Below are positions 2,947-36,689 of a stretch of 40,083 bases of DNA, in pieces. The notes under the pieces were generated by a model. The model made no database searches and was not told the DNA's origin. It worked only from the letters and a program-made list of their open reading frames with translations. The stretch is from an uncultured Elusimicrobiaceae bacterium. Lineage in GTDB: Bacteria > Elusimicrobiota > Elusimicrobia > Elusimicrobiales > UBA9959. The DNA lies in the NCBI GenBank assembly GCA_964435105.1, contig CAYSYJ010000001.1, forward strand, positions 1-40,083. Reading direction: 5' to 3'. Numbering within the stretch: the first letter of the stretch is position 1; each line of letters begins with the position of its first letter. A program made the position numbers and the translations under genes.

Positions 2947-2970
2947 GGCGGATACGGTCCGCCAGCCAGC

Positions 2971-3098
2971 GGACGGCAGGGTATGCCTTGCCGAGGGACA
3001 TCGCGCAGGACCGAGCTTGCGTAAGCGCGAGGTCCGAGCGAGAGGCGCGCGCACGGTGTGCGCGACGCCGTGCCCGAGGAAGGCATACCCTGTCGGCC
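2971..3098 (+). ncRNA. candidate structured RNA / structured repeat element, copy 1 (three helices)
   Basis: Outer helix is CAGGGTATGCCTT (2977-2989) with AAGGCATACCCTG (3080-3092). Inner helices are GGACC/GGTCC (3008-3012/3031-3035) and GGCGCGCGCAC-GGT-GTGCGCG-A-CGCC (3044-3069). It aligns over its full length with the reverse complement of 26363-26492, with compensatory changes. Confidence 0.55.
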
Positions 3099-3138
3099 GC
3101 TAAGGCGCTAACCTCCGCGCACGCTCGCTGAACGAACA

Positions 3139-4662
3139 GTGGATATGCCCGCTCCTGCCTCCAAGATGCCCAAGAAGATCCCGCCGATCATATTTCCCTT
3201 AGCCACTTCGGTACTGCTCGTCCTCGCCTATCCCAGGTTCGACCTGGGGTGGCTGGGCTGGGCGGCGCTGGGGCCTTTCTGCTGGTTCCTGCTCAACGCG
3301 CGGTCGCTGCGCGAGGCGGCGCTGGGCGGGCTGGTCTGCGGCTTCACGGCCTACCTCGGGCTGCTCTACTGGATCTATCCCACCATGCGGGCCGGCGGCG
3401 TGGGGCCGGCCGTCTCGCTGCTGGGGCTGCTGCTGCTGGCGCTGACGCTGGGGCTGGAGTTCGCGCTGGCCGGGCTGTACGGCTTCCAGCTGCGGCGCGC
3501 CGGGCACAAGGTCTGGCCCTACATGTTCGCGCTGGGCTGGTACCTGCTCGAATACGGCAAGGTCTGGCTGGCCATGAAGGCCGTCTGGTTCCCCTGGTTC
3601 ATGCTGGGCCATACCCAGTGGCGGTACACGGAGCTGATCCAGGTCTGCTCGGTCACCGGCGTCTACGGCCTCGGCGCCGCGCTGGCCTTTACCGCCGCGC
3701 TGGGCGCCGCGGCGCTGCTGCCCTGCGGGCCCGCCTGGCGGCGCCTGCTGCGCTTCGCCCCGGCGCCGCTGCTGCTGCTGGGGCTCTGGTATTTCGGCAA
3801 AGGCGAGCTGGCCCGGGCCGAGCCGCCGGCCCGCACGCTTAAGGCCGCCCTGCTGCAGCCGTCCATAGACCAGTACGCCAAGTGGGACAAAGGGCACGAG
3901 GAGGCCATCCGCGCCGTGATGGAGGAATTGTCCTCGCGGGCTGCCGGGGCCGACCTGGCCCTGTGGCCCGAGAACGCCCTGCCCTGCTGGATGGACGAGC
4001 CGGATTGCGAGGCCTGGGCCTCCACCGCCGCCGCGCGCGGCGCCGGGGCCAGCCTGCTGGGCTCGGTTTCCAAGGGCGGCGGCAGCCATGTCTCGGCCTT
4101 CCTGTTCGACGAGAAAGGGGCGGTAAAGGGCTCCTACGACAAACGGGTGCTGGTGCCCTTCGGCGAGTACGTGCCTTTCCGGGGGCTGCTGGGGCGCTGG
4201 ATAGAGCCGGTGGCCGCGCTGGGGGAATTCAGGCCGGGGCGGCCGGAGCAGCCGCTCCTCGAGGTGAGGGGCTTCAGGCTGGGCGCCGCCATCTGCTACG
4301 AATCCATCTTCCCGCCGCTCTTCGCGGCGGACGCCGCCCGGGGGGCGGACCTGTTCGTGAATATCACCAATGACGGCTGGTACCTGGACACCGCCGCGCC
4401 TTACCAGCACTTCGCGGCCAATGTCTTCAGGGCCGTGGAGACCCGCCGCGCCGTGCTGCGCGCGGCCAATAACGGGATCTCGGGGCTCATAGACCCCTGG
4501 GGCCGCGTCGTCGCGCGCACGGCCCTCGACGAGCGGCTGGTGCTGCCCGCCGAGGCGCCGGCCAATGCCGGGCAGAGCTTCTTCACGCTGTACGGCGGCT
4601 GGTTCGCGGTGGCGGCCCTGCTGGCGGTGGCCGCCTTCCTGATGGCGGTGCTGTTCGGATGA
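3139..4662 (+). CDS. lnt: apolipoprotein N-acyltransferase
   Basis: 507-aa ORF (GTG at 3139; ATG alternatives at 3145 and 3166). The N-terminal half is multi-TM. The C-terminal CN-hydrolase domain carries the Lnt-type block AAICYESIFP...NITNDGWY. Confidence 0.88.
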   Translation: MDMPAPASKMPKKIPPIIFPLATSVLLVLAYPRFDLGWLGWAALGPFCWFLLNARSLREAALGGLVCGFTAYLGLLYWIYPTMRAGGVGPAVSLLGLLLLALTLGLEFALAGLYGFQLRRAGHKVWPYMFALGWYLLEYGKVWLAMKAVWFPWFMLGHTQWRYTELIQVCSVTGVYGLGAALAFTAALGAAALLPCGPAWRRLLRFAPAPLLLLGLWYFGKGELARAEPPARTLKAALLQPSIDQYAKWDKGHEEAIRAVMEELSSRAAGADLALWPENALPCWMDEPDCEAWASTAAARGAGASLLGSVSKGGGSHVSAFLFDEKGAVKGSYDKRVLVPFGEYVPFRGLLGRWIEPVAALGEFRPGRPEQPLLEVRGFRLGAAICYESIFPPLFAADAARGADLFVNITNDGWYLDTAAPYQHFAANVFRAVETRRAVLRAANNGISGLIDPWGRVVARTALDERLVLPAEAPANAGQSFFTLYGGWFAVAALLAVAAFLMAVLFG

Positions 4663-5564
4663 AGATCGTCTTCCATAAAGGCTACACGGCCCGCCTGCCC
4701 GGGCATGTTTTCCGCCCGGACAAGTTCGAGGCCGCGCTGCTGCTGCTGCTGCGCGAAGGCGCCGTAAAGCGCGCCGACGTGCTGGAGCCTGAGCCGCCTT
4801 CGCGCGCCGACCTGCTGCTGGCCCATACCGCCGCCTGGACGGACAAGAACCTGGGCTTCAGGTTCACCCCGGCCGATTCTCGCCGCGCCGAACTGGAAAT
4901 AACCCCCGAAGTGGCCCGGGCGCACCTGCTGAACGTGGGGGGCACCCTGCTGGCGGCGCGGCTGGCGCTGCGCCAGGGCGTAGGGGTGAACTGCGGCGGC
5001 GGCTCCCACCACGCCTACCCTGGTCACGGAGAGGGCTTCTGCCTGCTCAACGACATCGCCGTGGCCTTAAGGCGGCTGCTCGCGGAGAAGCGGATAAAGC
5101 GCGCCTTCATAGCCGACCTCGACGCCCACCAGGGCAACGGCACCGCCGCGATTTTCAGGAAAGACCCGCGCGTCTTCACCTTCTCCATGCATAACGGCGC
5201 CGCCTACCCGGAACGCAAGGAGCGCGGCTCCCTGGACATAGAACTGGCGCCCGGCACGGGCGACGCCGCTTACCTGGCCGCGCTCGGCCGCGAGTTGCCG
5301 CTGGCGCTGGAGCGCTTCAGGCCCGACTTCCTGCTCTACGTGGCTGGCGCCGACGTCTATAAGGGCGACCTCATAGGCGGCCTCGCCCTGACGCGCGCCG
5401 GCATCCGCCGCCGCGACGCCCTGGTGCTGGCCGAATGCCGCCGCCGGCACCTGCCCGCCGCCGTGGTGCTCAGCGGCGGCTACGCCAGGAGATTCTCCGA
5501 CACCGTCCGCATCCACGCCGACACCGTCAAGGCCGCCCTCGCGTCCGCCAGCCTTAAAGCTTAG
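4659..5564 (+). CDS. histone deacetylase / acetoin-utilisation (HDAC) family deacetylase
   Basis: 301 aa with an ATGA start/stop overlap with lnt. Motifs are GGGSHHA, FCLLNDIAVA and DLDAHQGNGT. Confidence 0.85.
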   Translation: MKIVFHKGYTARLPGHVFRPDKFEAALLLLLREGAVKRADVLEPEPPSRADLLLAHTAAWTDKNLGFRFTPADSRRAELEITPEVARAHLLNVGGTLLAARLALRQGVGVNCGGGSHHAYPGHGEGFCLLNDIAVALRRLLAEKRIKRAFIADLDAHQGNGTAAIFRKDPRVFTFSMHNGAAYPERKERGSLDIELAPGTGDAAYLAALGRELPLALERFRPDFLLYVAGADVYKGDLIGGLALTRAGIRRRDALVLAECRRRHLPAAVVLSGGYARRFSDTVRIHADTVKAALASASLKA

Positions 5565-6545: not shown

Positions 6546-7397
6546 ATGGCGACCGTTTTTTCCGAGACTTTGACGCGGCTGCGCAAGGAGGCCGGTTTCC
6601 CGACGGCCTATCGCTTTTTTCACGACAACGGCGGGGCCAAGTTCTTCTCTGTGTCCTACCGCAATTACCTTATGATGGAGCAGGGGCGCAACCTGCCGGC
6701 CCCCGCCAGGCTGCCGCGGCTCATGCTCGGCCTGCGCCAGCCGCAGGGCACGCCGCTGGCCAGTGAGCTGGTGAAGGCCTGGCTGCGCACCATGACCGGA
6801 GACGAGATCTATGCCGACCTGGTGGAGCCGCTGTTCGGCGCCGGTATCTCCGCCCCGGCCGGCTCGCCGGCCGAGGAGGCCCTGCGGCGGAGCATCGCCG
6901 AAAAGAAGTTCCACATGACCGAGGCCCATATCCTGGCCTCGGCGGCCAGCTTCGAGGCCTACAAGTGCTTCTTCGTGATGGAGTTCGACGCCGGCGTCTG
7001 GACCGCGGAGGCCATGGCCAGGGCGCTGCGCATAAAGAAGGCCGAGGCCGAGAAGGCGTTGAAGAGCTTTGTGAAGGCGGGGATGGCGCGGGTCGAGGGC
7101 AGGAAAGGCTACCGCTCGAAGATAGCTGGAATGATGGTGGAGTATCCGGCCGGGCCCGCCCTGCCGCCGGGCATGATGGATAAGCTGAGGGGCTATTTCA
7201 AAAGACTGGAGGCCGAGAGCCGGATAGAGTTCGCCACCGCGGGCATGCTGCGCGCCGACTCCGACGACCTGCGGGGCTACTTCCCCATGCTGAAGTCCAG
7301 CGTAGAGGCCTCTTACGCCTTCAATACCACGGTGAAGACGAAAAAGTCGGCCGGTTTCTTCGTGCTGGGCAGGGTGCTCCGCCTCTGGGACTTCTAG
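6546..7397 (+). CDS. hypothetical protein with an XRE-like N-terminal HTH
   Basis: 283 aa with SD GGGAGGA upstream. The N-terminus LTRLRKEAGFPTAYRFFHDNG...YRNYLMMEQGRNLP resembles a Cro/C1-type HTH. The remainder is not recognised. Confidence 0.6.
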   Translation: MATVFSETLTRLRKEAGFPTAYRFFHDNGGAKFFSVSYRNYLMMEQGRNLPAPARLPRLMLGLRQPQGTPLASELVKAWLRTMTGDEIYADLVEPLFGAGISAPAGSPAEEALRRSIAEKKFHMTEAHILASAASFEAYKCFFVMEFDAGVWTAEAMARALRIKKAEAEKALKSFVKAGMARVEGRKGYRSKIAGMMVEYPAGPALPPGMMDKLRGYFKRLEAESRIEFATAGMLRADSDDLRGYFPMLKSSVEASYAFNTTVKTKKSAGFFVLGRVLRLWDF

Positions 7398-7493
7398 AGG
7401 GGACGCTGATTACTTTATTACTTTTGCTTCGAGGAATGCCCGGTTAGCAAGGGGTAGGTAATGGCAAAAGTAATAAAGTAATCAGCGTCCCCT
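7398..7493. repeat. long perfect hairpin A (30-bp AT-rich arms, 36-nt loop)
   Basis: AGGGGACGCTGATTACTTTATTACTTTTGC (7398-7427) is the exact reverse complement of 7464-7493. It starts 1 nt after the TAG stop of the upstream gene. Confidence 0.9.
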
Positions 7494-7499
7494 AAAGAA

Positions 7500-7532
7500 A
7501 CAGCCGGCCAACTGGCCGGCTGTTCTCTTTTT
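7500..7532. terminator. bidirectional intrinsic terminator
   Basis: ACAGCCGGCC-aact-GGCCGGCTGT followed by TCTCTTTTT, with an A-rich run on the other side. It lies between convergent genes. Confidence 0.7.
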
Positions 7533-7543
7533 ACTGGCGGCGT

Positions 7544-9077: not shown

Positions 9078-9126
9078 ATATAGGCAGCGCAGTACCGAGT
9101 CCACAAACAGCCGTATGGGAGGAGTA

Positions 9127-10395
9127 ATGTTAAGGAAAGCAGCCGCAGCGTTCGCGATTCTGTCCGTTACCGCAACCCTGGTGTCCGCCGAAATAAGCTT
9201 CGACACCCCCAACAAGTCCACCCTGCAGCAGGAGATAGCCGCCCTGGACATCAATGTCCCGGCCGTTCCTGTCATAGAAGAGGGGAACAAGGCCGCCGCC
9301 AAAGAGTGGACCATCATGGTCTTCCTCAACTCCAAGAACAACCTGGAGCGCTACGGCCTCCTGGACCTCAATGAGATGGAGAAGGTCGGCTCCTCCGATA
9401 AGGTGAACATAGTAGTGGAGATGGGCCGCATCAACGGCTACGCCACCAATGACGGCGACTGGAAGACCACCCGCCGCTTCCTGGTGCAGAAGGACAATGA
9501 CTTCTCCAAGGTGACCTCCCCCGTGCTCGCCGACCTCGGCAAGACCGACATGGGCGACTATAAGAGCCTGATCGCCTTCGTCAAGTGGGCCAAGGCGACC
9601 TACCCGGCCAAGAAGTACGCGCTGATCGTGTGGAACCACGGCTCCGGCTGGGACAAGGGCCGCGCCCTCGAGACCAAGGGCATCTCCTACGACGACGAGA
9701 CCGGCAACCACATCACCACCCCCCAGCTGGGCCTGGCCCTCAAGGAAATGGGCGGCGTGAACGTGTACGGCTCCGACGCCTGCCTGATGCAGATGCCTGA
9801 AGTCACCTACGAGATCAAGGACTATACCGAGTACATCGTGGGTTCCGAAGAGACCGAACCCGGCGACGGCTACACCTACGACCTGTGGCTCGGCCCCGTG
9901 GTCGCCAAGGGCAACATGAGCTCCTACGAGATGGGCAAGGCCGCCGTGGACGGTTACAGCAACCACTACCAGCAGATCGGCCAGGCCTCCACCCAGAGCC
10001 TGCTGAAGAGCTCCGCGCTGCGGGACTTCACGGTGCTGGTCAACGACTTTGTGACCTCCGCCATGGACACCGGCGAGAAGCAGCTGGTGAAGACCGCCGC
10101 TTCCGGCGCCCAGAGCTACGCCGTCTACGACAATAAGGACATGGGCCACTTCTTCGACCGCTACGCGGCTACCACCGCCAACGCGGACGTCAAGATGAAG
10201 GCCCTGGCCCTCAAGAGCTATATCGACGGCTCCCTGATCGTCCATAACCGCGTGAACGGCAACTTCGCCAACGGCAACAGCCACGGCATAGCGGCCTACA
10301 TGCCCGGTTATTCCTTCAACTCCGACTATATGGACCTCGCCTGGGCGCGGGACTCCCAGTGGGACGAGTTCGTGAAGTGGTACCAGGCCAAGTAA
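9127..10395 (+). CDS. secreted clostripain-like cysteine peptidase (MEROPS C11), paralog 1
   Basis: Start moved to ATG 9127 because of SD GGGAGGAG at 9117-9124. Signal peptide is MLRKAAAAFAILSVTATLVSA. The catalytic His block is LIVWNHGSGW and the Cys block is YGSDACLMQM. IVGSEETEPGDGYTY is also conserved. Confidence 0.85.
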   Translation: MLRKAAAAFAILSVTATLVSAEISFDTPNKSTLQQEIAALDINVPAVPVIEEGNKAAAKEWTIMVFLNSKNNLERYGLLDLNEMEKVGSSDKVNIVVEMGRINGYATNDGDWKTTRRFLVQKDNDFSKVTSPVLADLGKTDMGDYKSLIAFVKWAKATYPAKKYALIVWNHGSGWDKGRALETKGISYDDETGNHITTPQLGLALKEMGGVNVYGSDACLMQMPEVTYEIKDYTEYIVGSEETEPGDGYTYDLWLGPVVAKGNMSSYEMGKAAVDGYSNHYQQIGQASTQSLLKSSALRDFTVLVNDFVTSAMDTGEKQLVKTAASGAQSYAVYDNKDMGHFFDRYAATTANADVKMKALALKSYIDGSLIVHNRVNGNFANGNSHGIAAYMPGYSFNSDYMDLAWARDSQWDEFVKWYQAK

Positions 10396-10413
10396 TATAT
10401 AAAGCCTGAAAGG

Positions 10414-10447
10414 GAAGGGCCGGCTTAACCGCCGGCCCTTCTTTTTT
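10414..10447 (+). terminator. intrinsic terminator of peptidase paralog 1
   Basis: GAAGGGCCGGC-ttaacc-GCCGGCCCTTC followed by TTTTTT. Confidence 0.8.
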
Positions 10448-10471
10448 AAAGGGGACGAGGGGGACGACGAG

Positions 10472-10563
10472 GGGGACGTTGGTTAGTTGGTTAGTATTTT
10501 GGCTATGCCGACCGGTAAACCTGAACGCCAAGCGCAAATACTAACCAACTAACCAACGTCCCC
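10472..10563. repeat. long perfect hairpin B (28-bp arms, 36-nt loop)
   Basis: GGGGACGTTGGTTAGTTGGTTAGTATTT (10472-10499) is the exact reverse complement of 10536-10563. G-runs flank the left side and C-runs the right. Confidence 0.9.
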
Positions 10564-10622
10564 TATCCCCCCCTATCCCCCCTGTTCCCTTTGGGCCCAG
10601 GCGGCTCTGGGCCCAGCGCCCC

Positions 10623-10651: not shown

Positions 10652-10690
10652 ATAGGCATGAGCATCAAGCGCAGCCTTACGGAGGACTCC

Positions 10691-12013
10691 ATGATACGCA
10701 AGCTCTCGCTGTCGGCCGTAGCGGTTTCCATGTTCGCCTCGCTGGTCTCTGCCGAGATCGGCTTCGACGGCGCCACCCGGGCGACCCTCTCGGACGAACT
10801 CTCCAATATCCAGGTAGCCGCCGCCGGCGCCCCCGAGGCCGCGCAGGACAAGGGCATTATCGATTGGCTGCTGGGCAAGAAGCAGCCCGCCGAGTGGACC
10901 ATCATGGTCTTCTCCAGCGCCAAGAACGACCTGGAGTCCTTCCTGCTCAAGGACCTCAACGAGATGGAGATGATAGGCTCCTCCGACAAGGTCAATATCG
11001 TGGCCGAAGTCGGCCGCATCGAGGGTTACGATTCCTCTGACGGCGACTGGAAGGGCGTGCGCCGCTACCTCATCACCAAGGACAACGACACTTCCAAGAT
11101 GGGCTCCAAGATGCTGCAGGACCTGGGCATGAAGGACATGGGCGACTACCGCTCCCTGGTGGACTTCGGCAAGTGGGCCAAGGAGAAGTTCCCGGCCAAG
11201 CGCTATATGCTGATAGTTTCCAACCACGGCTCCGGCTGGGAGAAAGGCGTGGAGCGCCCCATCATCACCAAGGGCATCTCCTATGACGAGCAGAGCGGCA
11301 ACCACATCAATACCCCTCAGCTGGGCCAGGCCCTGCGCCAGATCGGCAAGCTGGACGTGTTCAGCACCGACGCCTGCCTGATGCAGATGGCCGAGGTCGT
11401 CTACGAGATCAAGGATTCCGTGGATTACATAGTGGGTTCCGAGGAGACCGAGCCCGGCGACGGCTATACTTATAACACCTTCCTCGGCCCCGTGGTCGCC
11501 CGCCCCACCATGACCCCCAGGGAAGTGGGCAAGCAGACCGTGGACGCCTATAGCGACCATTATGACAGCATCCGCCAGGGCTATACCCAGGCCCTCGCCC
11601 GCGGCGGCGCGGCCGTGACCAACCTGCTGCCCGTGACCAACGCCTTCACCGACGCCGTGATGGCCGCCGGCGAGAAGGAGCTGGCCAAGAGCGCCCGCGA
11701 CGCGGCCCTCTCTTTCGCGATAGAAGAGAACAAGGACCTGTACGACTTCACCCGCCGCGTGGTGGAAGGTTCCCAGAACGCCGACGTGAAGGCCAAGGGC
11801 CAGGCCCTGATGAACTACATAACCGGCACCCTGGTGCTGCACAACCGCACCCGCGATTCCCAGGGCGGCTACTGGAGCGGCCCCGTGCAGTACACCCTGG
11901 CCAAGGGCATGGCGGCCTACTTCCCCAACGCCTCGCTGGGCGCCGGCTACACCGACCTGGCCTGGGCCAAGGCCTCCAAGTGGGACGAGTTCGTGGTGTG
12001 GCTCAACAACTAA
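10691..12013 (+). CDS. secreted clostripain-like cysteine peptidase (C11), paralog 2
   Basis: Start moved to ATG 10691 because of SD GGAGGA at 10681-10686. Signal peptide is MIRKLSLSAVAVSMFASLVSA. The catalytic blocks are LIVSNHGSGW and FSTDACLMQM; IVGSEETEPGDGYTY is also conserved. Confidence 0.85.
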   Translation: MIRKLSLSAVAVSMFASLVSAEIGFDGATRATLSDELSNIQVAAAGAPEAAQDKGIIDWLLGKKQPAEWTIMVFSSAKNDLESFLLKDLNEMEMIGSSDKVNIVAEVGRIEGYDSSDGDWKGVRRYLITKDNDTSKMGSKMLQDLGMKDMGDYRSLVDFGKWAKEKFPAKRYMLIVSNHGSGWEKGVERPIITKGISYDEQSGNHINTPQLGQALRQIGKLDVFSTDACLMQMAEVVYEIKDSVDYIVGSEETEPGDGYTYNTFLGPVVARPTMTPREVGKQTVDAYSDHYDSIRQGYTQALARGGAAVTNLLPVTNAFTDAVMAAGEKELAKSARDAALSFAIEENKDLYDFTRRVVEGSQNADVKAKGQALMNYITGTLVLHNRTRDSQGGYWSGPVQYTLAKGMAAYFPNASLGAGYTDLAWAKASKWDEFVVWLNN

Positions 12014-12030: not shown

Positions 12031-12067
12031 AGAAGGGCCGGCTTAACAGCCGGCCTTTCTTATTTTT
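12031..12067 (+). terminator. intrinsic terminator of peptidase paralog 2
   Basis: AGAAGGGCCGGC-ttaaca-GCCGGCCTTTCT followed by TATTTTT. It is clearly paralogous to the terminator at 10414-10447. Confidence 0.75.
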
Positions 12068-12074
12068 GTAAGAT

Positions 12075-13106
12075 TTGGCTATGAAAGTCCTGTTGCTGGG
12101 CGGAGGCGGGCTGTTGAGCGGGGCTGCGCGGGAGGCTTTTCTCGCGGCCGGCCACGATGTGACCGTGCTGACGCGCGGGGCGAGGGAGCTGCCGTCTGCG
12201 GACCGGCTGAGCGCGCTGCGGGCCGACCGCCGCGACCCGGCGGCGCTGGCCCGGGCGCTTTCCGGCAAGCGTTTCGATTTTACCGCCGATTTCCTGGCCT
12301 ACAACGGCGAAGACGTGGCGGGGCTTTTCGCCGCCCCGGGCTTCTCGCCCGGCCGCCTGGCCATGATCTCCACCGGCCAGGTCTACCTGGTGACCAGGGG
12401 GCAGAAGCCGCCTTTCAAGGAGGGCGACGCGGACGCGCCTGTCATACCCGAGCCGGCCCGGGGCACGCGGGACTGGGACAACTGGGCTTACGGCATGGGC
12501 AAGCGCGCGGCGGAGGCCGGGCTGCTGCGGCTGGCGGGGGAGAGGGGCGTAAAAGTTCTGGCCCTGCGGCTGCCGGTAGTGCAGGGCGAGGCCGACGGGC
12601 TGGCCTCGCGCCGGCTCTGGGCCTGGCTGCAGCGCATGCAAGACGGCGGGCCGGTGCTGCTGCCCGACGGCGGGTCGCAGCCGGTGCGCTTCGTCTACGC
12701 CGGGGACGCCGCCGCCGCGCTGCTGCGGCTGGCCGCGGGCGAGGGCTGGCCGGCGGGCCCCGCGCTGAACCTGGCCCAGCCGGGCGAGACTACCCTTAAG
12801 GAATTTTTGGAAATGGCCGCCGCCTGCGCCGGCCTCAAGCCCGGTTTCGTGCCCGTCGCGGGCGCCGAGCTGGAGCGGGCCGGGCTGGCCGACACTTGCG
12901 CCCCGTACTGGAGCCGCTGGTGCTCGCGGCTGGACCCGTCGGCGGCCTTCGCCCTGGGGTTTAAGACGCGCGGCCCGGAGGAATACCTGCCCGGCGTGGT
13001 GCGCGCCCACCTGGCCGGCCCGCCTCCCGCCCCGCACGAGGGTTACGCCCGCCGGGCCGGGGAATTGGCCCTCGCGGCGAGGCTGCGCGCCGGCGGTTCC
13101 GCTTAA
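12075..13106 (+). CDS. NAD-dependent epimerase/dehydratase (SDR) family protein
   Basis: 343 aa with N-terminal Rossmann motif MKVLLLGGGGLLSGAAREAFLAAGHDVTVLTRG. Confidence 0.75.
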   Translation: MAMKVLLLGGGGLLSGAAREAFLAAGHDVTVLTRGARELPSADRLSALRADRRDPAALARALSGKRFDFTADFLAYNGEDVAGLFAAPGFSPGRLAMISTGQVYLVTRGQKPPFKEGDADAPVIPEPARGTRDWDNWAYGMGKRAAEAGLLRLAGERGVKVLALRLPVVQGEADGLASRRLWAWLQRMQDGGPVLLPDGGSQPVRFVYAGDAAAALLRLAAGEGWPAGPALNLAQPGETTLKEFLEMAAACAGLKPGFVPVAGAELERAGLADTCAPYWSRWCSRLDPSAAFALGFKTRGPEEYLPGVVRAHLAGPPPAPHEGYARRAGELALAARLRAGGSA

Positions 13107-13122
13107 ACGGCCGTGTAATCCC

Positions 13123-15147
13123 CTATTCGCCGCGCCAGCGCAGTGTGCCGAAGAGATCGCTGAAATCGTCGGTCCAGGGGCGGCGCCCCGGCGGCGCCGG
13201 TATGGCCTGCGCCCGGCCCTTGAAGTCCGCGGCCGCGTAGAGGCCCGGCCTGCCGCCCACCAGCACCCAGGTGGCGCTGCTCGAGGCGTCCTCGGCCCGC
13301 TCGCCGCTGGAGATGGCAAAGGCCTTTTTGCCGGCCGCGTCGGCGGCCAGCCGCACCACGGGCTCCAGGTCCAGGTAGATGCTCGAGACGTGCACCGCCA
13401 GCACCCCGTCCGGCTTGAGATGCCGGAAATAAAGCTCGAAAGCTTCCTTCGTCAGCAAATGCACCGGTATGGAGTCGCCGGAGAAGGCGTCCACCGCCAG
13501 CAGGTCGAAATTCTGCGGCGGTTCGCGCTGCAGGGCCAGGCGGGCGTCGCCGTGCTCGGCTATCTCGACGCTCGCCGGCGTATCTCCCAGGAAGCTGAAC
13601 ATGCGCTCGGCCGTATCGGTGACCAGCGGGTTGATCTCGTAGAAGCGGAAAGCGTCGCCCGGCCGGCCATAGGCGGCCGCGGTGCCGGCGCCCAGGCCTA
13701 TCACGCCCACGCGCAGCGGGCCGCGCGCGCCCTCGGCCCGCAGGGCCAGGCCCAGGCCGCTCTCCCTGCCGTAATAGGTGGTGGGCACGCCGCGCTTCTC
13801 CGGTTTCTGGAACTGGGCCCCGTGCAGCACCGCCCCGTTGGTGAGGTAGCGCACGGCCTCCGGCCCGTCGGAGCCCTCCTGCGTCACCAGCAGGGTGCCG
13901 TAGAAATTTCGCTCGGCGCTGAGCAGGCGGCCGTCCACCTTGCGGGCCTCGTCCCAAAGTGAGACCGGCAGGCCGCAGAACAGTATCCCCAGCAGTATCC
14001 AGGCCGGCGAGGGCCGCGCCTCCTCGTCCCGGTAGAAAGCCCACCAGGTGAGCAGCACGAAAGCGCTTACCCCGATAGGCAGCTCGTAATAACCGTTAAA
14101 AAGCCGCGGGGCGAGCAGCCCCACGAACAGCCCGCCAGCCGCCCCGCCCAGCGACAGCGCCAGGTAGAACCAGGTCAGCCGCGATTCGTGGGGGCGCCGG
14201 CGGGCCAGTTCCCCGTGGCAGGTCAGGCAGGCGGTGAAAAGGCCGCCCAGCAGGAGCGGCAGCAGGTAGTTCAGGTCCATGTCGCCCATGTCCCTGTAAA
14301 GCGGCAGGGCCAGCGCCGCTGCGGCCAGCACCGGGAAGGGCAGGAAGGCGCGGCTCCAGGTCCAGCGCGCCGGGGCGAACACGAAAATGAAGCTGAGCAG
14401 GTACAGCGTAAGCGGCGCCAGCCACAGGAAAGGCACCGGGGCCACGCTCTGGGTGAGGTGGTTGGTCACGGCCAGCAGCAGCAGCGAGGGGCAGGCCGCG
14501 AGCAGCAGCCACAGGAGCAGCTGCCCGGGCCTCGGCGCCGGGCCCGCCGCGCCGGCGGCCGCCTGCGGGCGCCAGCCGGCCGCCTCACCGGCGGCCCTGG
14601 CGCAGAAAACGGCGAAGACCGCGTAGCCGGCGGCCCAGAGGCCTAGCTGCCACTTGAGCGGCAGCCAGGGCTCCACCAGCACCGGGTAGGCCAGCAGGGC
14701 CAGCAGCGAGCCGGCATTGGAGAGGGCGTAGAGGCGGTAGGGGGAAACGCTTCCGCCTTTGCGGGCCAGCCAGGCCTGAAGCAGGGGTCCCGTGGAGGAC
14801 AGCGTGAAATAGGGCAGGCCGGTCATCAGGAGCAGCAGGCCCAGCAGCGCCAAGGAGGGATCGGCCCCGCCCGGTCCGCGCGCGCGCAGCAACAGGAGCG
14901 GCAGGGCGGCCAGGCCGGCCAGCAGCAGCCGCCGGTGCAGGCGGGCCTGCGCCTCGGGCGCCGCCCGCACCGCCAGCAGGTGGGCGTAGAGGTAGCCCAG
15001 GAACAGCAGCGCCTGGAAGAAGACCATGCAGACCGCCCACACCGCCGCACCGCCCCCGAAAGAGGGCAGCAGCGCCTTGGCGATCATAGGCTGCAGCAGG
15101 AAAAGCAGCAGCGCGCCAAGGAAGACCGCAGGCGGGAAAGGGTTCAT
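13123..15147 (-). CDS. fused polytopic-membrane / spermidine-synthase-like methyltransferase-fold protein
   Basis: 674 aa. The N-terminal ~400 aa form many hydrophobic helices. The C-terminal part has VGVIGLGAGTAAAYG...FYEINPLV...DLLAVDAFSGDSIPVHLLTKEAF...LKPDGVLAVHVS, typical of spermine/spermidine-synthase-like folds. Confidence 0.75.
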   Translation of the reverse strand: MNPFPPAVFLGALLLFLLQPMIAKALLPSFGGGAAVWAVCMVFFQALLFLGYLYAHLLAVRAAPEAQARLHRRLLLAGLAALPLLLLRARGPGGADPSLALLGLLLLMTGLPYFTLSSTGPLLQAWLARKGGSVSPYRLYALSNAGSLLALLAYPVLVEPWLPLKWQLGLWAAGYAVFAVFCARAAGEAAGWRPQAAAGAAGPAPRPGQLLLWLLLAACPSLLLLAVTNHLTQSVAPVPFLWLAPLTLYLLSFIFVFAPARWTWSRAFLPFPVLAAAALALPLYRDMGDMDLNYLLPLLLGGLFTACLTCHGELARRRPHESRLTWFYLALSLGGAAGGLFVGLLAPRLFNGYYELPIGVSAFVLLTWWAFYRDEEARPSPAWILLGILFCGLPVSLWDEARKVDGRLLSAERNFYGTLLVTQEGSDGPEAVRYLTNGAVLHGAQFQKPEKRGVPTTYYGRESGLGLALRAEGARGPLRVGVIGLGAGTAAAYGRPGDAFRFYEINPLVTDTAERMFSFLGDTPASVEIAEHGDARLALQREPPQNFDLLAVDAFSGDSIPVHLLTKEAFELYFRHLKPDGVLAVHVSSIYLDLEPVVRLAADAAGKKAFAISSGERAEDASSSATWVLVGGRPGLYAAADFKGRAQAIPAPPGRRPWTDDFSDLFGTLRWRGE

Positions 15148-15168
15148 GGGCCTATCATAACAAAATCG

Positions 15169-15262
15169 GGGGTCAGGTCTTTACTTTTGACCTTTTCGGT
15201 CAAAAAAATACGGGTGGTCCCGTCCGGGGCTCCCAAAAGGTCAAAAGTAAAGACCTGACCCC
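15169..15262. repeat. long perfect hairpin C (28-bp arms, 38-nt structured loop)
   Basis: GGGGTCAGGTCTTTACTTTTGACCTTTT (15169-15196) is the exact reverse complement of 15235-15262. The arm sequence is the same as in hairpins D and E. Confidence 0.9.
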
Positions 15263-15351
15263 ATTCCCTTGATTGGAGACGGATAAATATAATAGTCTTG
15301 TGGAAGGTAACCCTATAAGGGGGCTCCCGCCCCCGTTTCTGGAGGCAGTTA

Positions 15352-16626
15352 ATGAAGAAGATAGCGATAGCGGTGTTCGCCCTCGCGTTTTCCGCCCAGG
15401 CCGCGCTGGCCGGCGTGAATTTCGACGGCGGCAGGTTCGACCTGAAGCAGGAAATCACTAACCTCGATATCTCCGTGCCCGCGCCCGCGGCCGCCAAGGC
15501 CCGCCCGGACAAGGAATGGACCGTGATGGTCTTCATCAACGCGAAGAACAACCTTGAGAAATACGGCCTCAAGGACATGAACGAGATGGAGATGATCGGT
15601 TCCGGCGACAAGTACAATGTCGTGGTGGAGCTCGCCCGCATCAACGGCTTCGACACCTCCGACGGCGACTGGAAGACCTCCCGCCGCTACCTCGTGCAGA
15701 AGGACAACGAGCCGGCCAAGGTCACCTCCCCGGTGGTGCAGGAACTGCCCTCCGTGGACATGGGCGACTACAAGCACCTCGTCGACTTCGTGAAGTGGTC
15801 CAAGGCCAATTACCCGGCCCGCAAGTACATGCTGATAGTCTGGAACCACGGCGCCGGCTGGATCAAGACCCCGCTGCGCTCCCCGGTGAAGGGCATCTCC
15901 TACGACGACCAGACCGGCAACCACATCACCACCCCCCAGCTGGGCCAGGCCCTCAAGGAAGCGGGCGGCGTGGACGTGTACGGCTCCGACGCCTGCCTGA
16001 TGCAGATGGCCGAGGTGGTCTACGAGCTCAAAGACCACGCCAAGTACATAGTCGGCTCCGAGGAGACCGAGCCCGGCGACGGCTACACCTATAACACCTT
16101 CCTGGCGCCGCTCGCGGCCAAGCAGGACATGGGCCCGGCCGAGCTGGCCAAGGTCACGGTGGACGCCTACAGCGACCATTACCAGCAGATCGGCGAAGGT
16201 TCCACCCAGAGCTATATCCGCACCTCCGCGCTGGCCTCCTACCTGGACGCCTCCAACGCCTTCGCCTTCGCGATAACGCAGGCCGGAGACAAGGAAGTGG
16301 CCAAGCAGGCCATGAGCCAGGCCCAGAGCTACGCCTACCCGGAGAACAAGGACGTCTACCACTTCGCGCAGCTGGTGGCCGGCGCCACCCAGAACGCCGA
16401 CGTGAAGGCCAAGGCCGAGGCCCTGATGGCGAACATCAAGACCAAGGTGGTGGCCCATAACCGCACCAATAACAGCGAGGGCGGCTGGTGGGGCCCCACG
16501 CTCTACGACGACTCCCACGGCATAGCGGCCTACCTGCCCGGTACCGCCGCCCCGGCGCACTACGCCGACCTGCAGTGGGCGCAGTACTCCAACTGGGACG
16601 AGTTCATCGCCTGGCTGGCGCAGTAA
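15352..16626 (+). CDS. secreted clostripain-like cysteine peptidase (C11), paralog 3
   Basis: 424 aa with SD GGAGG upstream and signal peptide MKKIAIAVFALAFSAQAALA. The catalytic blocks are LIVWNHGAGW and YGSDACLMQM; IVGSEETEPGDGYTY is also conserved. Confidence 0.87.
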   Translation: MKKIAIAVFALAFSAQAALAGVNFDGGRFDLKQEITNLDISVPAPAAAKARPDKEWTVMVFINAKNNLEKYGLKDMNEMEMIGSGDKYNVVVELARINGFDTSDGDWKTSRRYLVQKDNEPAKVTSPVVQELPSVDMGDYKHLVDFVKWSKANYPARKYMLIVWNHGAGWIKTPLRSPVKGISYDDQTGNHITTPQLGQALKEAGGVDVYGSDACLMQMAEVVYELKDHAKYIVGSEETEPGDGYTYNTFLAPLAAKQDMGPAELAKVTVDAYSDHYQQIGEGSTQSYIRTSALASYLDASNAFAFAITQAGDKEVAKQAMSQAQSYAYPENKDVYHFAQLVAGATQNADVKAKAEALMANIKTKVVAHNRTNNSEGGWWGPTLYDDSHGIAAYLPGTAAPAHYADLQWAQYSNWDEFIAWLAQ

Positions 16627-16635
16627 CGGGGGAAT

Positions 16636-16710
16636 GGGGTCAGGTCTTTACTTTTGACCTTTTACCCCTCGCAGCATATCTCGAAAGGTCAAAAGTAAAG
16701 ACCTGACCCC
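16636..16710. repeat. long perfect hairpin D (27-bp arms, 21-nt loop)
   Basis: GGGGTCAGGTCTTTACTTTTGACCTTT (16636-16662) is the reverse complement of 16684-16710. It is part of the 16627-16800 duplicated module. Confidence 0.9.
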
Positions 16711-16723
16711 TTAAAATAAAAGA

Positions 16724-16759
16724 AACCGGCCGGGGAGCGATCCCCGGCCGGTTCTTTTT
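16724..16759. terminator. bidirectional intrinsic terminator
   Basis: AACCGGCCGGGGA-gcga-TCCCCGGCCGGTT followed by CTTTTT, with AAAATAAAAGA on the other side. It lies between convergent genes. Confidence 0.8.
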
Positions 16760-16844
16760 GGCCTCTGCGGGAGGGGCTTAAACCCTTTCCTTGGCGGCCG
16801 GGTCCTCGACCTTGGCCTTCTTGGCGGCCGGCACGGCGGCGGGT

Positions 16845-19100
16845 TTAGCGCTGCGCGGCGTAGCTCGCGGCGCAGGCCCCGGGCGTGTCGAAGGCGCGGT
16901 TTTTCAGCCCGTCGGGCAGCGGCAGCCCCTCGAGGCCGCCGGGAGGAGCTTCCAGGCAATCTATCTCGTCCGCCGTGAAATACTTGAGCAGTTTTCCTTC
17001 CAAGTAGCAGCTGTCGCAGCCCGTTATCGCGTTCCATCCCGCGCGGCCGGCCGGCGGGGCCGCGCCCTTGTTGCGCAGGTTGCGTACATAGGCCAACGCC
17101 AGGTAGGCGGAGTAATCCGCCGGCGCTATTATGGTGTCGCCCCACTTCCGGACGGCAAGGTCCATGTCGCCGCCGGCATCCGCCACGGACCTGTAGCCGG
17201 AGGCGGGCGTGCCGTAGGAGCGCGCGGCCCAGGCGCGGCTGGAAATGAACAGCTGGTAATCCCCGTAAGCTTCGGCGCGGTTATTGTTGCCTATCCCGGA
17301 GAAAAGATAATCATAGGCGCCGTACAGGAGATCTTCTTCCTGGGGGGTGTTCGAAGAAGTGGAAAGTTTTATCCCGCTCAGGGCTTCCAGCTCCTTCGGC
17401 GCCAGGGCCATGCCGGCATCCAGCACGCGCTTGAGGCGTCTCTTGCCCAGGCGCATTATCACCGGCGGGGGTATGGCTTCCAGCTCCAGTAACAGGCGGG
17501 TTTCTTCGTCTGAAAGCCCGCCGGCGGCCCGCCTGTGCGAGGCCATGTTGTCAGAGGAAAGTTCTCCCACGCCGCGCCCGAGGCGCTCTTCGGCGGGATG
17601 CAGCCAGGTCCCGCGGCCGTCCTTAAGGTGACCCAACAGCAGTGCCGCGTAGGCGCGCGTGCCGGCCAGCTTGGCGGCCAGCCGCTGGTCGGCAAGGGAG
17701 ATGGCGGACACGGCTTTAAGGCCGCGCGGGTAATCCGTCACCAGGTAAGCCGTGGCCAGGGCCAGTTTCCGCGGTGAGCCGGAGTTGTGTCCGGCGACGG
17801 CGGCGGCCAGGCCGAAGCCCTCCACGTCTATGGTGGCGGCCTCGGCGGGCAGGGCCCGCAGGTAGGCCGCCGTTTCGGCGAGCGGGCTGGCGACGGCCTG
17901 GTGGCAGCCGGAGGAGCCGGGTGGCGCCAGCGGGTTGGGGATGAGCAGCTTCTCGCCGGAATCGCCGATATAGCAGTAGGGATAGGCGAAGGTGTACGGG
18001 GTGTGGTAGGCGAGGCTGCCGGCCGAGCCCGCGAAATAGAGTTCGTCGAACGAAACCCCTGACTTGAGCAGGGCGCTTACGGTGGCCCCGAGTATGTCCC
18101 CGTACCAGCTGTCTTCCGCCGCCACCGCCACATAGGTGGAGGTGCCTATCTCGGCCGAGAAGGCCTTGAAGCCTTTCCCGGACTTCTCTTTCTTTATATA
18201 AGGCGCGAACTCCTCGCGCAGTTCGCGGTAGTAGCCGAGCAGGAGGCCCCGGAAAGAGCGGGGCAGGCCGGACTCGAACGCGGCCAGCACGCCGGGGCAG
18301 GGCTTGGCGGGCGCGGGCCGCGCGTCCACCAGCACTTCGGGCTCAAGGCCGCGCTCCGCCAGCAGCAGGCCGTATACCCGCAGCACGTGAGCGAACCAGG
18401 AGGCGCCCGCGAAATCGCACAGGACCAGCGCGGGCTTTTTCCCGCCGGTGAGGTAGGCCTGGAAGCCGTAGGTGGAGCCGGGAACGCGCAGGGACCTGAC
18501 CTTGCCCTGCTCCGCGCCGGCCAGGGCCAGGGCGTCGGCGGCGGGCCCCCGGGAGAAGATGACGCGCGCCGGGGCGCTGCCGGGGCGCAGAAGCGCGCCC
18601 AGCGGGCCGGCCTGGGCGGCTACGTAGGAGGCGACGTCGTGCATGGGAAGCGTTTCGCCCGGCAGGGAGCGCACTTCGGGGGGAAAGCCGGCCGCCGCCG
18701 GGGGCGGGTCCGGCAGGCGGCCGGCGTTGGCCGGTTCCGCCAGGCGCTCGCCGGAAACGTAGAAATACGCGCCGGTATCCTTTACGGCGGAATCGAACGC
18801 CTGCCGGGCGCCGCCTTTAAGCCCGGCGCAGGAGGCGGCCTGCGAGCTTATCCGGCGCAGCAGGTCGTCCAGCCGGGGATTGCTCCCGGTTTTTTTAAGC
18901 GCTTTTTTCTCCGCCTCGGAGAAACAGTCGCGGGGGACCGCCGGCTCCCCGCCGGAATAGCGAGAGAGGTAGTACGATATGCTGCGCGAATAAGCCGCGG
19001 CCACGCCGGCAGCCACCCCCGGCGGCAGTCCGGCTTCCGAGGCGTGCGGGAGGGCGGGGAAAAGTAAAAGGACCGCGGCGGCTCGCAGGAGGCTTTTCAT
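16845..19100 (-). CDS. large secreted hypothetical protein (751 aa), function unknown
   Basis: Signal peptide is MKSLLRAAAVLLLFPALPHASEA. The central part weakly resembles a nucleoside phosphorylase/nucleosidase fold, with FAGSAGSL, IDVEGFGLAAAV and AYLVTDYP in the expected order. The C-terminal domain is not recognised. Confidence 0.7.
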   Translation of the reverse strand: MKSLLRAAAVLLLFPALPHASEAGLPPGVAAGVAAAYSRSISYYLSRYSGGEPAVPRDCFSEAEKKALKKTGSNPRLDDLLRRISSQAASCAGLKGGARQAFDSAVKDTGAYFYVSGERLAEPANAGRLPDPPPAAAGFPPEVRSLPGETLPMHDVASYVAAQAGPLGALLRPGSAPARVIFSRGPAADALALAGAEQGKVRSLRVPGSTYGFQAYLTGGKKPALVLCDFAGASWFAHVLRVYGLLLAERGLEPEVLVDARPAPAKPCPGVLAAFESGLPRSFRGLLLGYYRELREEFAPYIKKEKSGKGFKAFSAEIGTSTYVAVAAEDSWYGDILGATVSALLKSGVSFDELYFAGSAGSLAYHTPYTFAYPYCYIGDSGEKLLIPNPLAPPGSSGCHQAVASPLAETAAYLRALPAEAATIDVEGFGLAAAVAGHNSGSPRKLALATAYLVTDYPRGLKAVSAISLADQRLAAKLAGTRAYAALLLGHLKDGRGTWLHPAEERLGRGVGELSSDNMASHRRAAGGLSDEETRLLLELEAIPPPVIMRLGKRRLKRVLDAGMALAPKELEALSGIKLSTSSNTPQEEDLLYGAYDYLFSGIGNNNRAEAYGDYQLFISSRAWAARSYGTPASGYRSVADAGGDMDLAVRKWGDTIIAPADYSAYLALAYVRNLRNKGAAPPAGRAGWNAITGCDSCYLEGKLLKYFTADEIDCLEAPPGGLEGLPLPDGLKNRAFDTPGACAASYAAQR

Positions 19101-19179
19101 CGTTATCGGGCTCCGGTCGTCGGCGGTAAAATGCCGGCGTTCGGCCTGATCCTATATTATAGACAAAACCCGGGGGAAT

Positions 19180-19254
19180 GGGGTCAGGTCTTTACTTTTG
19201 ACCTTTTACCCCTCGTAGCATATCTCGAAAGGTCAAAAGTAAAGACCTGACCCC
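19180..19254. repeat. long perfect hairpin E (copy of D)
   Basis: Identical to hairpin D except for one loop base (C to T). It is part of the 19171-19344 duplicated module. Confidence 0.9.
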
Positions 19255-19267
19255 TTAAAATAAAAGA

Positions 19268-19303
19268 AACCGGCCGGGGAGCGATCCCCGGCCGGTTCTT
19301 TTT
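19268..19303. terminator. intrinsic terminator (copy of 16724-16759)
   Basis: Same AACCGGCCGGGGA-gcga-TCCCCGGCCGGTT stem with T-runs. It lies downstream of the minus-strand membrane protein gene. Confidence 0.8.
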
Positions 19304-19322
19304 CGCCCCTGGAAGGAGGGGC

Positions 19323-26350: not shown

Positions 26351-26362
26351 CCGGGTGTCGCG

Positions 26363-26492
26363 GCCCGACCGGGGTATGGGGTCTTCGGGCACGCGGTCGG
26401 CAACACCGTTGCCGCCGCTTGTCGCTCGGGCTCGGCGCTTACGTAAGCCTCGCCCTGCGCTACATCCCTCCGCCCCCATACCCCGGCCGGGC
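26363..26492 (-). ncRNA. candidate structured RNA / structured repeat element, copy 2 (opposite orientation)
   Basis: Its reverse complement aligns with 2971-3098. The outer 13-bp helix is 26369-26381 with 26474-26486. Single-stranded blocks are conserved and all three helices covary. Confidence 0.55.
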
Positions 26493-26512
26493 CTTTAGGA
26501 TCGCAGGACTTT

Positions 26513-36580: not shown

Positions 36581-36689
36581 AAATAGGGACGGAGCCCTAT
36601 TTCCATGTTTTGTATCCCCAAAATTATCCTTGTTTTATAAGGATATTTGTCTTTGCGACCGGGGAATAAATAGGGCTCCGTCCCTATTT
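36581..36689. repeat. long perfect hairpin F (22-bp arms, 65-nt AT-rich loop)
   Basis: AAATAGGGACGGAGCCCTATTT (36581-36602) is the reverse complement of 36668-36689. The right arm overlaps the RND stop codon. The left arm ends 2 nt from the SD of the next gene. Confidence 0.9.

Follow-up and report, generated by a model that had tools for sequence, protein, structure and literature searches.

What put six long, perfectly paired hairpins between the genes of an uncultured Elusimicrobiaceae bacterium, and do they belong to a class of element already described? The DNA examined here (the window) comprises 40,083 nucleotides from positions 1 to 40,083 of contig CAYSYJ010000001.1, assembly GCA_964435105.1. 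A first-pass annotation made from the letters alone had listed the hairpins, here called A to F (Table 1), and had found no established class for them, naming REPIN-like doublets as the closest analogy. That analogy proved essentially right. We consider it likely that hairpins A to E are of the terminal inverted repeat (TIR) kind that accompanies RAYT-like transposase genes known as TIRYTs, a sister of the REPIN/RAYT system already described in other bacteria and found here in Elusimicrobia. Hairpin F is a separate unit of the same general kind.

Six perfect inverted repeats stand out from the window

Two inverted-repeat scans, one of them restricted to perfect repeats, recovered all six hairpins where they had first been annotated, with arms of 22 to 30 bp that are free of mismatches. 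These are the six strongest inverted repeats in the window. Six perfect arms of at least 20 nt were observed, against 0 in 100 dinucleotide shuffles of the window, where the longest arm reached 14 nt. Folding of both strands gave a long stem for every hairpin, with RNA folding energies of −47 to −61 kcal/mol (z, −8 to −11.5); as DNA, hairpin A folds at −35 and hairpin D at −30 kcal/mol. The stems are about 55 to 60% A+T, and the window, which is chromosomal, is about 64% G+C. Hairpin E had been described as a copy of D, which held: both lie inside a 141-nt direct repeat whose copies are 98% identical. Hairpin A is base-for-base the same in two further public assemblies of this organism (ENA ERZ27257504 and Logan SRR8476232), made with different pipelines, although possibly from raw reads in common with the window.

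The class-1 arm brackets a Y1 transposase gene in related genomes

Hairpins C, D, and E share one arm, here termed class 1, in which a linker of 3 nt joins a G-rich head (GGGGTCAG) to an AT-rich tail of two tandem 7-8-mers that is specific to the family. In a collection holding one genome per species, its 24-mer, GGGGTCAGGTCTTTACTTTTGACC, gave 86 exact-match stretches in about 25 metagenome-assembled genomes (MAGs), all but two labeled Elusimicrobia. The 111 class-1 arm occurrences resolved into 36 inverted doublets and 47 single arms. The doublets enclose loops of 1 to 59 nt; 20 are perfect over 24 nt, 9 have one or two mismatches, and 7 have three to six. The earlier suggestion that structure is conserved rather than sequence was therefore not borne out, since about 25 MAGs share the C/D/E 24-mer without change and the arms of A and B recur identically on metagenome contigs (see below).

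The class-1 arm also occurs around a gene. At two loci (L041 and L069; L numbers denote the database loci and contigs compared), two inverted class-1 arms about 930 nt apart enclose an open reading frame (ORF) of 284 amino acids, and at L065, which likewise has both arms, an ORF 82% identical to it adjoins a class-1 arm. The 284-amino-acid ORF matches Pfam Y1_Tnp (E, 4e-10 to 3e-12) and contains the HUH motif NHYHLV, and the L041 protein scores 83.7 bits (cut-off, 80) against the NCBIfam equivalog model NF047646, "REP-associated tyrosine transposase." The reading frame ends within the downstream inverted repeat (L041, 3871-3894 for the arm and 3875-4729 for the ORF), such that the arm encodes SKVKT and the stop codon. 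At L012, from a Neomarinimicrobiota MAG, the 3' end of a 54%-identical homolog likewise lies inside a class-1 arm (1075-1098). About 8,000 homologs of the transposase are present in the databases, and a PDB sequence search with it returned nothing at an E value of ≤0.01.

Several further observations concern the class-1 arm and its surroundings. Exact copies outside Elusimicrobia were found at L012, together with the 54%-identical transposase, and in a Patescibacteria MAG (L078); these reflect either horizontal transfer or mis-binned contigs. Hetero-doublets of a class-1 arm and a variant arm, GGGGTCAGGTCTTGAATCTTGACC, recur at L005, L019, L021, L057, and L071 and give a hairpin with a mismatched center. 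A class-1 arm, a terminator, and the end of a class-2 arm (described below) follow one another in L072 (about 4485-4570), a class-1 arm adjoins a class-2 arm in L029 (about 3700-3800), and the loop of a doublet in L078 (2429-2533) holds a complete terminator. In many Elusimicrobia a stereotyped intrinsic terminator (AACCGCCGGGGAAGCCCGGCGGTTTT and close variants) occurs several times per 8-kb locus independently of the arms (for example, L066, L055, L031, and L023). Single class-1 arms stand directly upstream of this terminator in 13 of 47 cases. A composite of arm, GC-rich hairpin, and T-run was rejected as a part of the element, the same terminator being found many times per locus away from arms.

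The arms of hairpins A and B form a second class with a constant head and exchangeable tails

Hairpins A and B had been regarded as having unrelated arms. Both arms begin with GGGGACGYTG and continue with the same layout of two tandem 7-8-mers. Across the hairpins collected, this class-2 arm reads as GGGGACG, 3 nt, and two tandem 7-8-mers, the repeated unit being ATTACTTT, GTTAGTTG, ATTCCTA, CTTCCTAT, TTGACTAT, or TTTAGTTC, among others. The exact A/B arm pattern had 0 matches in the species-level genome collection. Exact A/B arms were found on 16 metagenome contigs with differing flanks, 12 of them from one sample (metagenome Ga0302238); the doublets on these contigs, ten perfect ones of B type and two or three of A type, all occupy different loci, and the hairpin A arm is on L129 and L136. 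The A/B arm families are lineage-specific. A sister tail, ATTCCTA in two copies, is multi-copy in five Elusimicrobia MAGs.

A head of this class, GGGGACGCTGAT, stands in inverted orientation around Y1 genes of 330 to 334 amino acids at L138, L147/L148, and L150, which the databases name "REP element-mobilizing transposase RayT." On the minus strand of L138, at about 1400-1540, a tandem partial duplication comprising the arm, the leader, and the first 17 codons lies upstream of the intact transposase copy.

Matches to the ATTCCTA tail pattern outside Elusimicrobia were (ATTCCTA)n microsatellites and were set aside as irrelevant. These are intergenic (L095, L097, L099-L101, L104, L106, L108, L110, L113, L115, L116, L118, L121-L124, and L126), and their hosts include Acidobacteriota, Bacteroidales, Clostridia, cyanobacteria, and Patescibacteria among many unrelated phyla.

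Orthologous sites are filled in some genomes and empty in others

Hairpin A is missing from eight of eight orthologous loci (50 to 72% protein identity), at which the stop codon is followed about 20 nt on by the same terminator as in the window. Both L089 and L090 have an empty B site. In L088 (about 82% nucleotide identity) a 90-nt hairpin with the same head and a different tail and loop occupies exactly the position of B, and L088 lacks a hairpin at the site orthologous to D/E. Given the empty orthologous sites at A and B, arm, loop, and arm arrived as one block. The possibility that the loop is an older host spacer between two independently inserted arms was rejected for B, the empty sites in L089 and L090 having no loop-like sequence.

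The flanks of more than 50 doublets held no direct repeat of the kind expected from target-site duplication. The ends of class-2 elements can be written as A/GGGGACG...CGTCCCC/T (slashes mark the element boundaries), and TA follows many class-2 copies. Several doublets are orthologous between species, with identical arms and diverged loops (for class 1, L028/L061/L043, L039/L051, and L026/L052). The 3-nt linker co-varies in both arms, as at one orthologous site with homologous loops, where it is TAC in one case and CTG in the other.

Assignment to a published repeat system

Contrary to the view that no established class exists, repeats of this description have been published. Di Nocera, De Gregorio, and Rocco (2013) described RAYT-like genes flanked by long TIRs rather than by repetitive extragenic palindromes (REPs), terming them "TIRtrons" and "TIRYTs"; many of these TIRs share the motif GGGGWSAS (GGGG[AT][CG]A[CG]) and occur as singles and dimers in families of moderate abundance (PMC3733652). 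Quentin et al. (2018) placed most TIRYTs, which carry C-terminal helix-turn-helix (HTH) domains, in the TnpA-REP-like subclass 2.1 (PMC6006769). The resemblance of the class-1 and class-2 repeats to that system extends to inverted repeats of about 25 to 30 nt that are not self-complementary and, in class 1, carry a GGGGWSAS head, to a RAYT-like Y1 gene with a putative C-terminal HTH extension between them, and to a downstream repeat that overlaps the 3' end of the gene. The C/D/E head GGGGTCAG fits GGGG[AT][CG]A[CG] exactly. By itself this motif shows no enrichment in the window, with 12 observed versus 14.8 expected. Both classes form dispersed, moderately abundant families of singles and dimers, as TIR repeats do, and in related or other genomes both stand in inverted orientation beside or around a RAYT-like Y1 gene (class 1 at L041, L069, L065, and L012; the class-2 head at L138, L147/L148, and L150). 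These transposases, at 284 to 334 amino acids, are longer than the Y1 core of about 120 amino acids, and Pfam family PF08299 (Bac_DnaA_C) is precomputed on the close homologs P0027, P0030, P0075, and P0117. The first-pass annotation had said that multi-copy arm families with a cognate transposase would make the hairpins known biology; dispersed families and, in relatives, a flanked Y1 gene are what we found.

In other respects the repeats differ from the published TIRYTs. They lie in the phylum Elusimicrobia, about 25 species keep one and the same 24-mer, GGGGACGY is present as a second type of head, and the tails resolve into two tandem 7-8-mers that differ by family. The loops are unrelated between copies, and the window has no transposase gene.

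A second set of comparisons is with REPIN/RAYT (Bertels and Rainey 2011, PMC3116915; Nunvar 2010, PMC2817692; Ton-Hoang 2012, PMC3333891). As there, a long hairpin results from two units in inverted orientation, the doublets lie outside genes in multiple copies, and their repeats also flank a Y1 transposase gene; target duplication is absent, orthologous copies persist over long times, and the protein passes the model for REP-associated tyrosine transposases. Strict membership fails, however. The arms of A to E are not small palindromes: single-arm DNA folding gave 0 for A, 0 for B, and −3.4 kcal/mol for C/D/E (z, −2.8), and only the arm of F pairs with itself. Because single class-2 arms are without self-structure (folding energy, 0), they behave as TIRs and not as REPs. 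REPs are defined by a conserved GTAG (or CGTC) tag at one end (PMC3733652), whereas no unpaired GTAG or CGTC tag is present here, CGTC occurring only within the paired head CGTCCCC; nor is the spacer of A to E conserved among copies, as it is in REPINs.

Resemblance to other known elements is partial. Bacterial miniature inverted-repeat transposable elements (MITEs; Correia/NEMIS, ERIC, RUP, Nezha, and the Tn3-derived TIMEs) are likewise 75 to 110 bp long, bear terminal inverted repeats, lie beside genes, and form stable RNA hairpins; the elements here differ in that target-site duplication and a conserved core are absent and the associated transposase is of the Y1/HUH and not the DDE type. 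With IS200/IS605 ends and PATEs they share the Y1 HUH family, a presumed single-strand mechanism, and seamless insertion. Unlike the perfect inverted ends that pair together here, however, IS200/IS605 ends have small, differing subterminal hairpins and no terminal inverted repeats. Three other candidates were rejected: intrinsic terminators (the stems are 22 to 30 bp long and about 55 to 60% A+T, and separate terminators are kept in orthologs that lack the hairpins), a CRISPR array (the repeats are inverted pairs at dispersed loci and not regular direct repeats), and attC sites, on their defining features.

A number of observations weigh against the TIRYT assignment. One concerns the loops. 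Copies with the same arm carry unrelated loops, with no BLAST match and no shared k-mers above shuffles, and this counts against the assignment because a simple copy-paste element should keep its loop; loops do resemble each other in orthologous copies, in D and E, and in one MAG where they are short (L014 and L017). The A/B head, GGGGACG[CT], departs from GGGGWSAS at position 7. The class-2 cases that flank a transposase are metagenomic contigs of other organisms, which have only the 12- to 14-nt head in common with A and differ in their tails, and a fourth homolog, L149, is without class-2 head flanks. In the proteins scanned, the C-terminal HTH_3 (E, 9e-4 to 2e-3) and HTH_23 (E, 5e-3) matches fall below the Pfam cut-offs. 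A tblastn search of the 40-kb window found no Y1 transposase, so that the cognate enzyme of this organism is inferred from relatives. Finally, to our knowledge, the papers on TIRYTs consulted here give no biochemical proof of a TIRYT moving its TIRs.

A source for the loops was sought in the transposase-carrying element, the donor flanks of single arms, and elsewhere in the 1.07 Mb of DNA fetched; none was found except orthologs. A motif, ATGCC...CCGGTWA, that had been noticed in loops A and B is not above chance, and no loop k-mer exceeds the shuffles. The comparison of loop A with ortholog spacers was not significant (184/2000 shuffles), and a weak inverted match between the B-site loops of the window and L088 (24/2000 shuffles) is not decisive. 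A 16-nt match to loop B in L133 lies within a coding region that, on visual inspection, resembles ribosomal protein L4; chance is the best reading of this match.

Hairpin F is a separate REP-like unit

Each arm of hairpin F is an 8-bp stem-loop by itself (single-arm DNA folding, −5.0; z, −4.5), and its head does not fit GGGG[AT][CG]A[CG]. The exact 22-mer was found in one Planctomycetia MAG, on three contigs, and in one Omnitrophota MAG, and variants of its center occur in Elusimicrobia (L064 and L112). No transposase was found near the F-type arms at the Planctomycetia and Omnitrophota loci. Hairpin F is a separate REP-like unit forming a REPIN-like doublet, and it is not demonstrably part of the A-to-E system.

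A proposed transposase acting in trans and the alternatives

Taking these comparisons together, we propose that A to E are nonautonomous head-to-head TIR doublets of RAYT-like Y1/HUH tyrosine transposase genes (TIRYT, TnpA-REP subclass 2.1). Mobilization in this organism would depend on a transposase encoded elsewhere in its genome and acting in trans, its substrate being single-stranded DNA folded into the long hairpin by pairing of the two arms. Cleavage would fall at the outer boundaries of the heads, at the consensus A/GGGGACG...CGTCCCC/T, and the C-terminal HTH domain would read the tandem octamers of the tail. By analogy with the established mechanism of IS200/IS605 and REP enzymes, the element would then be reinserted seamlessly. 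Any effects on the host, whether from 27- to 30-bp duplexes in 3' untranslated regions (3' UTRs) and promoter regions or from the supply of recombination substrates, would be by-products.

The doublets may also arise by something other than simple copy-paste, each copy gaining a new loop and its arms being made complementary by a templated step. Fold-back synthesis, conversion within the hairpin, or replacement of arms by the transposase at resident sites could each provide such a step. It would account for the unrelated loops, for the co-variation of the linker in both arms, and for the differing tails at the B site; we offer it tentatively and think it rather improbable.

One alternative is that the hairpins are host RNA elements selected in place, such as 3' UTR stabilizers, RNase III sites, or attenuators, the families being shared functional sequence. 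Hairpins A, D, and F do occupy transcribed gene ends or directly follow them, the stems are highly stable as RNA on both strands, class-1 arms are 100% kept at orthologous sites while loops diverge, and REPs in Escherichia coli influence mRNA stability (PMC3733652). However, it is the true terminators that are conserved at orthologous sites, whereas the hairpins there are polymorphic. C occupies a divergent promoter region, and B and E are downstream of terminators. Furthermore, the same arms surround a transposase gene, single arms are as common as doublets, and the palindromes are strand-symmetric, so that there is no orientation bias to exploit. We regard selection as host RNA elements as unlikely.

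An alternative of similar standing, and likewise doubtful, is that the Y1 protein has been domesticated and uses the repeats as sites for binding or structuring the chromosome, with conversion or selection keeping the copies alike, in a long-term symbiosis like that of REPIN and RAYT and not in active transposition. The case has been made that RAYTs are domesticated genes present in single copy (PMC5581495). Identical arms in orthologous copies of several species point to long vertical persistence, and at one orthologous site with homologous loops both arms co-vary at the linker, TAC versus CTG. Fresh insertions relative to close relatives (A and D/E) nevertheless need movement, and domestication is in any case compatible with nonautonomous TIR doublets of a TIRYT.

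Derivation as MITEs from a DDE transposon, either of the Tn3 family with its GGGG inverted repeats or of the IS630 type with its TA targets, is very improbable. Terminal inverted repeats around a short core, GGGG termini, and the TA after many class-2 copies would suit it; no consistent two-sided target-site duplication is seen, the Y1/HUH transposase is the only gene found bracketed by the arms, and internal sequence is not conserved between copies, unlike in MITE families. Palindromic chimeras, which assembly errors can create and for which a metagenome-type assembly such as that of the window invites suspicion, are scarcely credible, because hairpin A is the same in two assemblies from other pipelines and members of the arm families turn up in dozens of other assemblies, including about 25 independently assembled MAGs and several metagenomes.

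Genomic setting of the hairpins

The window encodes SecA, Lnt, a deacetylase, three clostripain (C11) paralogs, and an AcrB-type pump, and related loci place it in Elusimicrobia. All six hairpins are intergenic, between ORFs. The statement that all lie at gene ends fails for C, which sits in a divergent promoter region between the starts of genes 13123-15147 (minus strand) and 15352-16626 (plus strand). Hairpin A separates the stop codon of gene 6546-7397 (plus strand) from a terminator, and both A and D are between convergent genes. B and E each stand between a terminator and the gene that comes next, and F lies between the stop codon of the AcrB-like pump gene and a gene for a 63-amino-acid membrane protein. 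Separate GC-rich terminators beside A, B, D, and E, reported earlier, were seen again, and the hairpins are distinct from them (Table 1). The terminator beside A is kept in orthologs that lack the hairpin and is therefore host sequence outside the element.

Table 1. Hairpins of the window and the features next to them
Feature	Position	Strand	Description
Hairpin A	7398-7493	.	Probable class-2 TIR doublet; arms 7398-7427 and 7464-7493 (30 bp), AGGGGACG-CTG-ATTACTTT-ATTACTTT-TGC; loop 7428-7463 (36 nt)
Terminator by A	7499-7534	+	AACAGCCGGCC-AACT-GGCCGGCTGTT and T-run; canonical GC-rich intrinsic terminator
Terminator by B	10409-10449	+	Terminator of the first clostripain paralog; 10409-10446 in the repeat scan; kept in orthologs; host sequence, left edge of the B insertion site
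Extra partial heads left of B	10451-10471	+	GGGGACGAG, GGGGACGACGAG (GGGGACG half-heads); not in L088
Hairpin B	10472-10563	.	Probable class-2 TIR doublet; arms 10472-10499 and 10536-10563 (28 bp), GGGGACG-TTG-GTTAGTTG-GTTAGT-ATTT; loop 36 nt
C-rich repeats right of B	10564-10588	+	TATCCCCCCC TATCCCCCC TGTTCCC; mostly not in L088
Hairpin C	15169-15262	.	Probable class-1 TIR doublet; arms GGGGTCAGGTCTTTACTTTTGACCTTTT (28 bp); loop 38 nt
Hairpin D	16636-16710	.	Probable class-1 TIR doublet; arms 27 bp; loop 21 nt
Terminator by D	16723-16754	.	Bidirectional, GC-rich; ortholog in L088; host sequence
Hairpin E	19180-19254	.	Copy of D with one loop substitution; arms 27 bp; loop 21 nt
Terminator by E	19267-19298	.	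Bidirectional; within the 141-nt direct repeat 19171-19311
Hairpin F	36581-36689	.	Separate family; 22-nt arm AAATAGGG-ACGGAG-CCCTATTT; 65-nt AT-rich spacer

Judging from their sequence, the partial heads to the left of B may have been left behind by past insertions or excisions. The 141-nt direct repeat (16627-16767 and 19171-19311) holds D or E together with its terminator, and it bounds a 2.5-kb segment (16627-19170, with gene 16845-19100) that is missing in the closest relative, L088. A 3.2-kb segment with two genes (12066-15267), the right edge of which is hairpin C, is also missing there. Since both segments are bounded by or end at hairpins, the hairpins coincide with indel boundaries. 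Beyond the 141-nt repeat, similarity between the D and E regions persists at lower identity (16768-16800 versus 19312-19345). On the E side it reaches the 3' coding end of gene 19323-20819, and its counterpart on the D side resembles a noncoding remnant in a frame different from that of ORF 16845-19100.

The three clostripain-family (Peptidase_C11) paralogs stand in a row (9115-10395, 10658-12013, and 15352-16626) with DNA identity of about 70 to 80%, and the array is kept in relatives. A second structured intergenic repeat family, of about 135 nt, is present at 2968-3101 and 26362-26493 of the window and at L087 334-447, L091 4887-5000, and L088 about 15140-15300. Within its outer stem, GGCAGGGTATGCCTTC...GAAGGCATACCCTGYC, are the palindromes GGCCACACCGTGGCC and GCGCTTACGTAAGCGC, and the family had no Rfam match; one copy follows secA directly in the window and in two orthologs. 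Rfam 15 at the gathering threshold gave 0 matches in the whole window, and a tRNA/tmRNA scan of the window found none.

Implications

There is no need to assume that the structured elements form a new class: a conspicuous feature of these Elusimicrobia genomes is best explained as the footprint of a RAYT/TIRYT-type tyrosine transposase. For annotation, the hairpins mark boundaries of indels and rearrangements, as with the 2.5- and 3.2-kb segments that they bound, and duplexes of 27 to 30 bp may affect expression of the neighboring clostripain-like and efflux genes. Were the templated step to be true, HUH-associated repeats would have a new way of arising and of evolving their specificity, and the tandem-octamer tail would be a rapidly diversifying recognition code for the HTH domain. 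The little-studied TIRYT/TIR system is extended to another phylum, and with it comes a natural data set, in which one arm family is frozen across about 25 species, sister families combine a constant head with swappable octamer tails, and orthologous sites are both filled and empty. These data could guide the biochemistry of end recognition by TIRYT enzymes.

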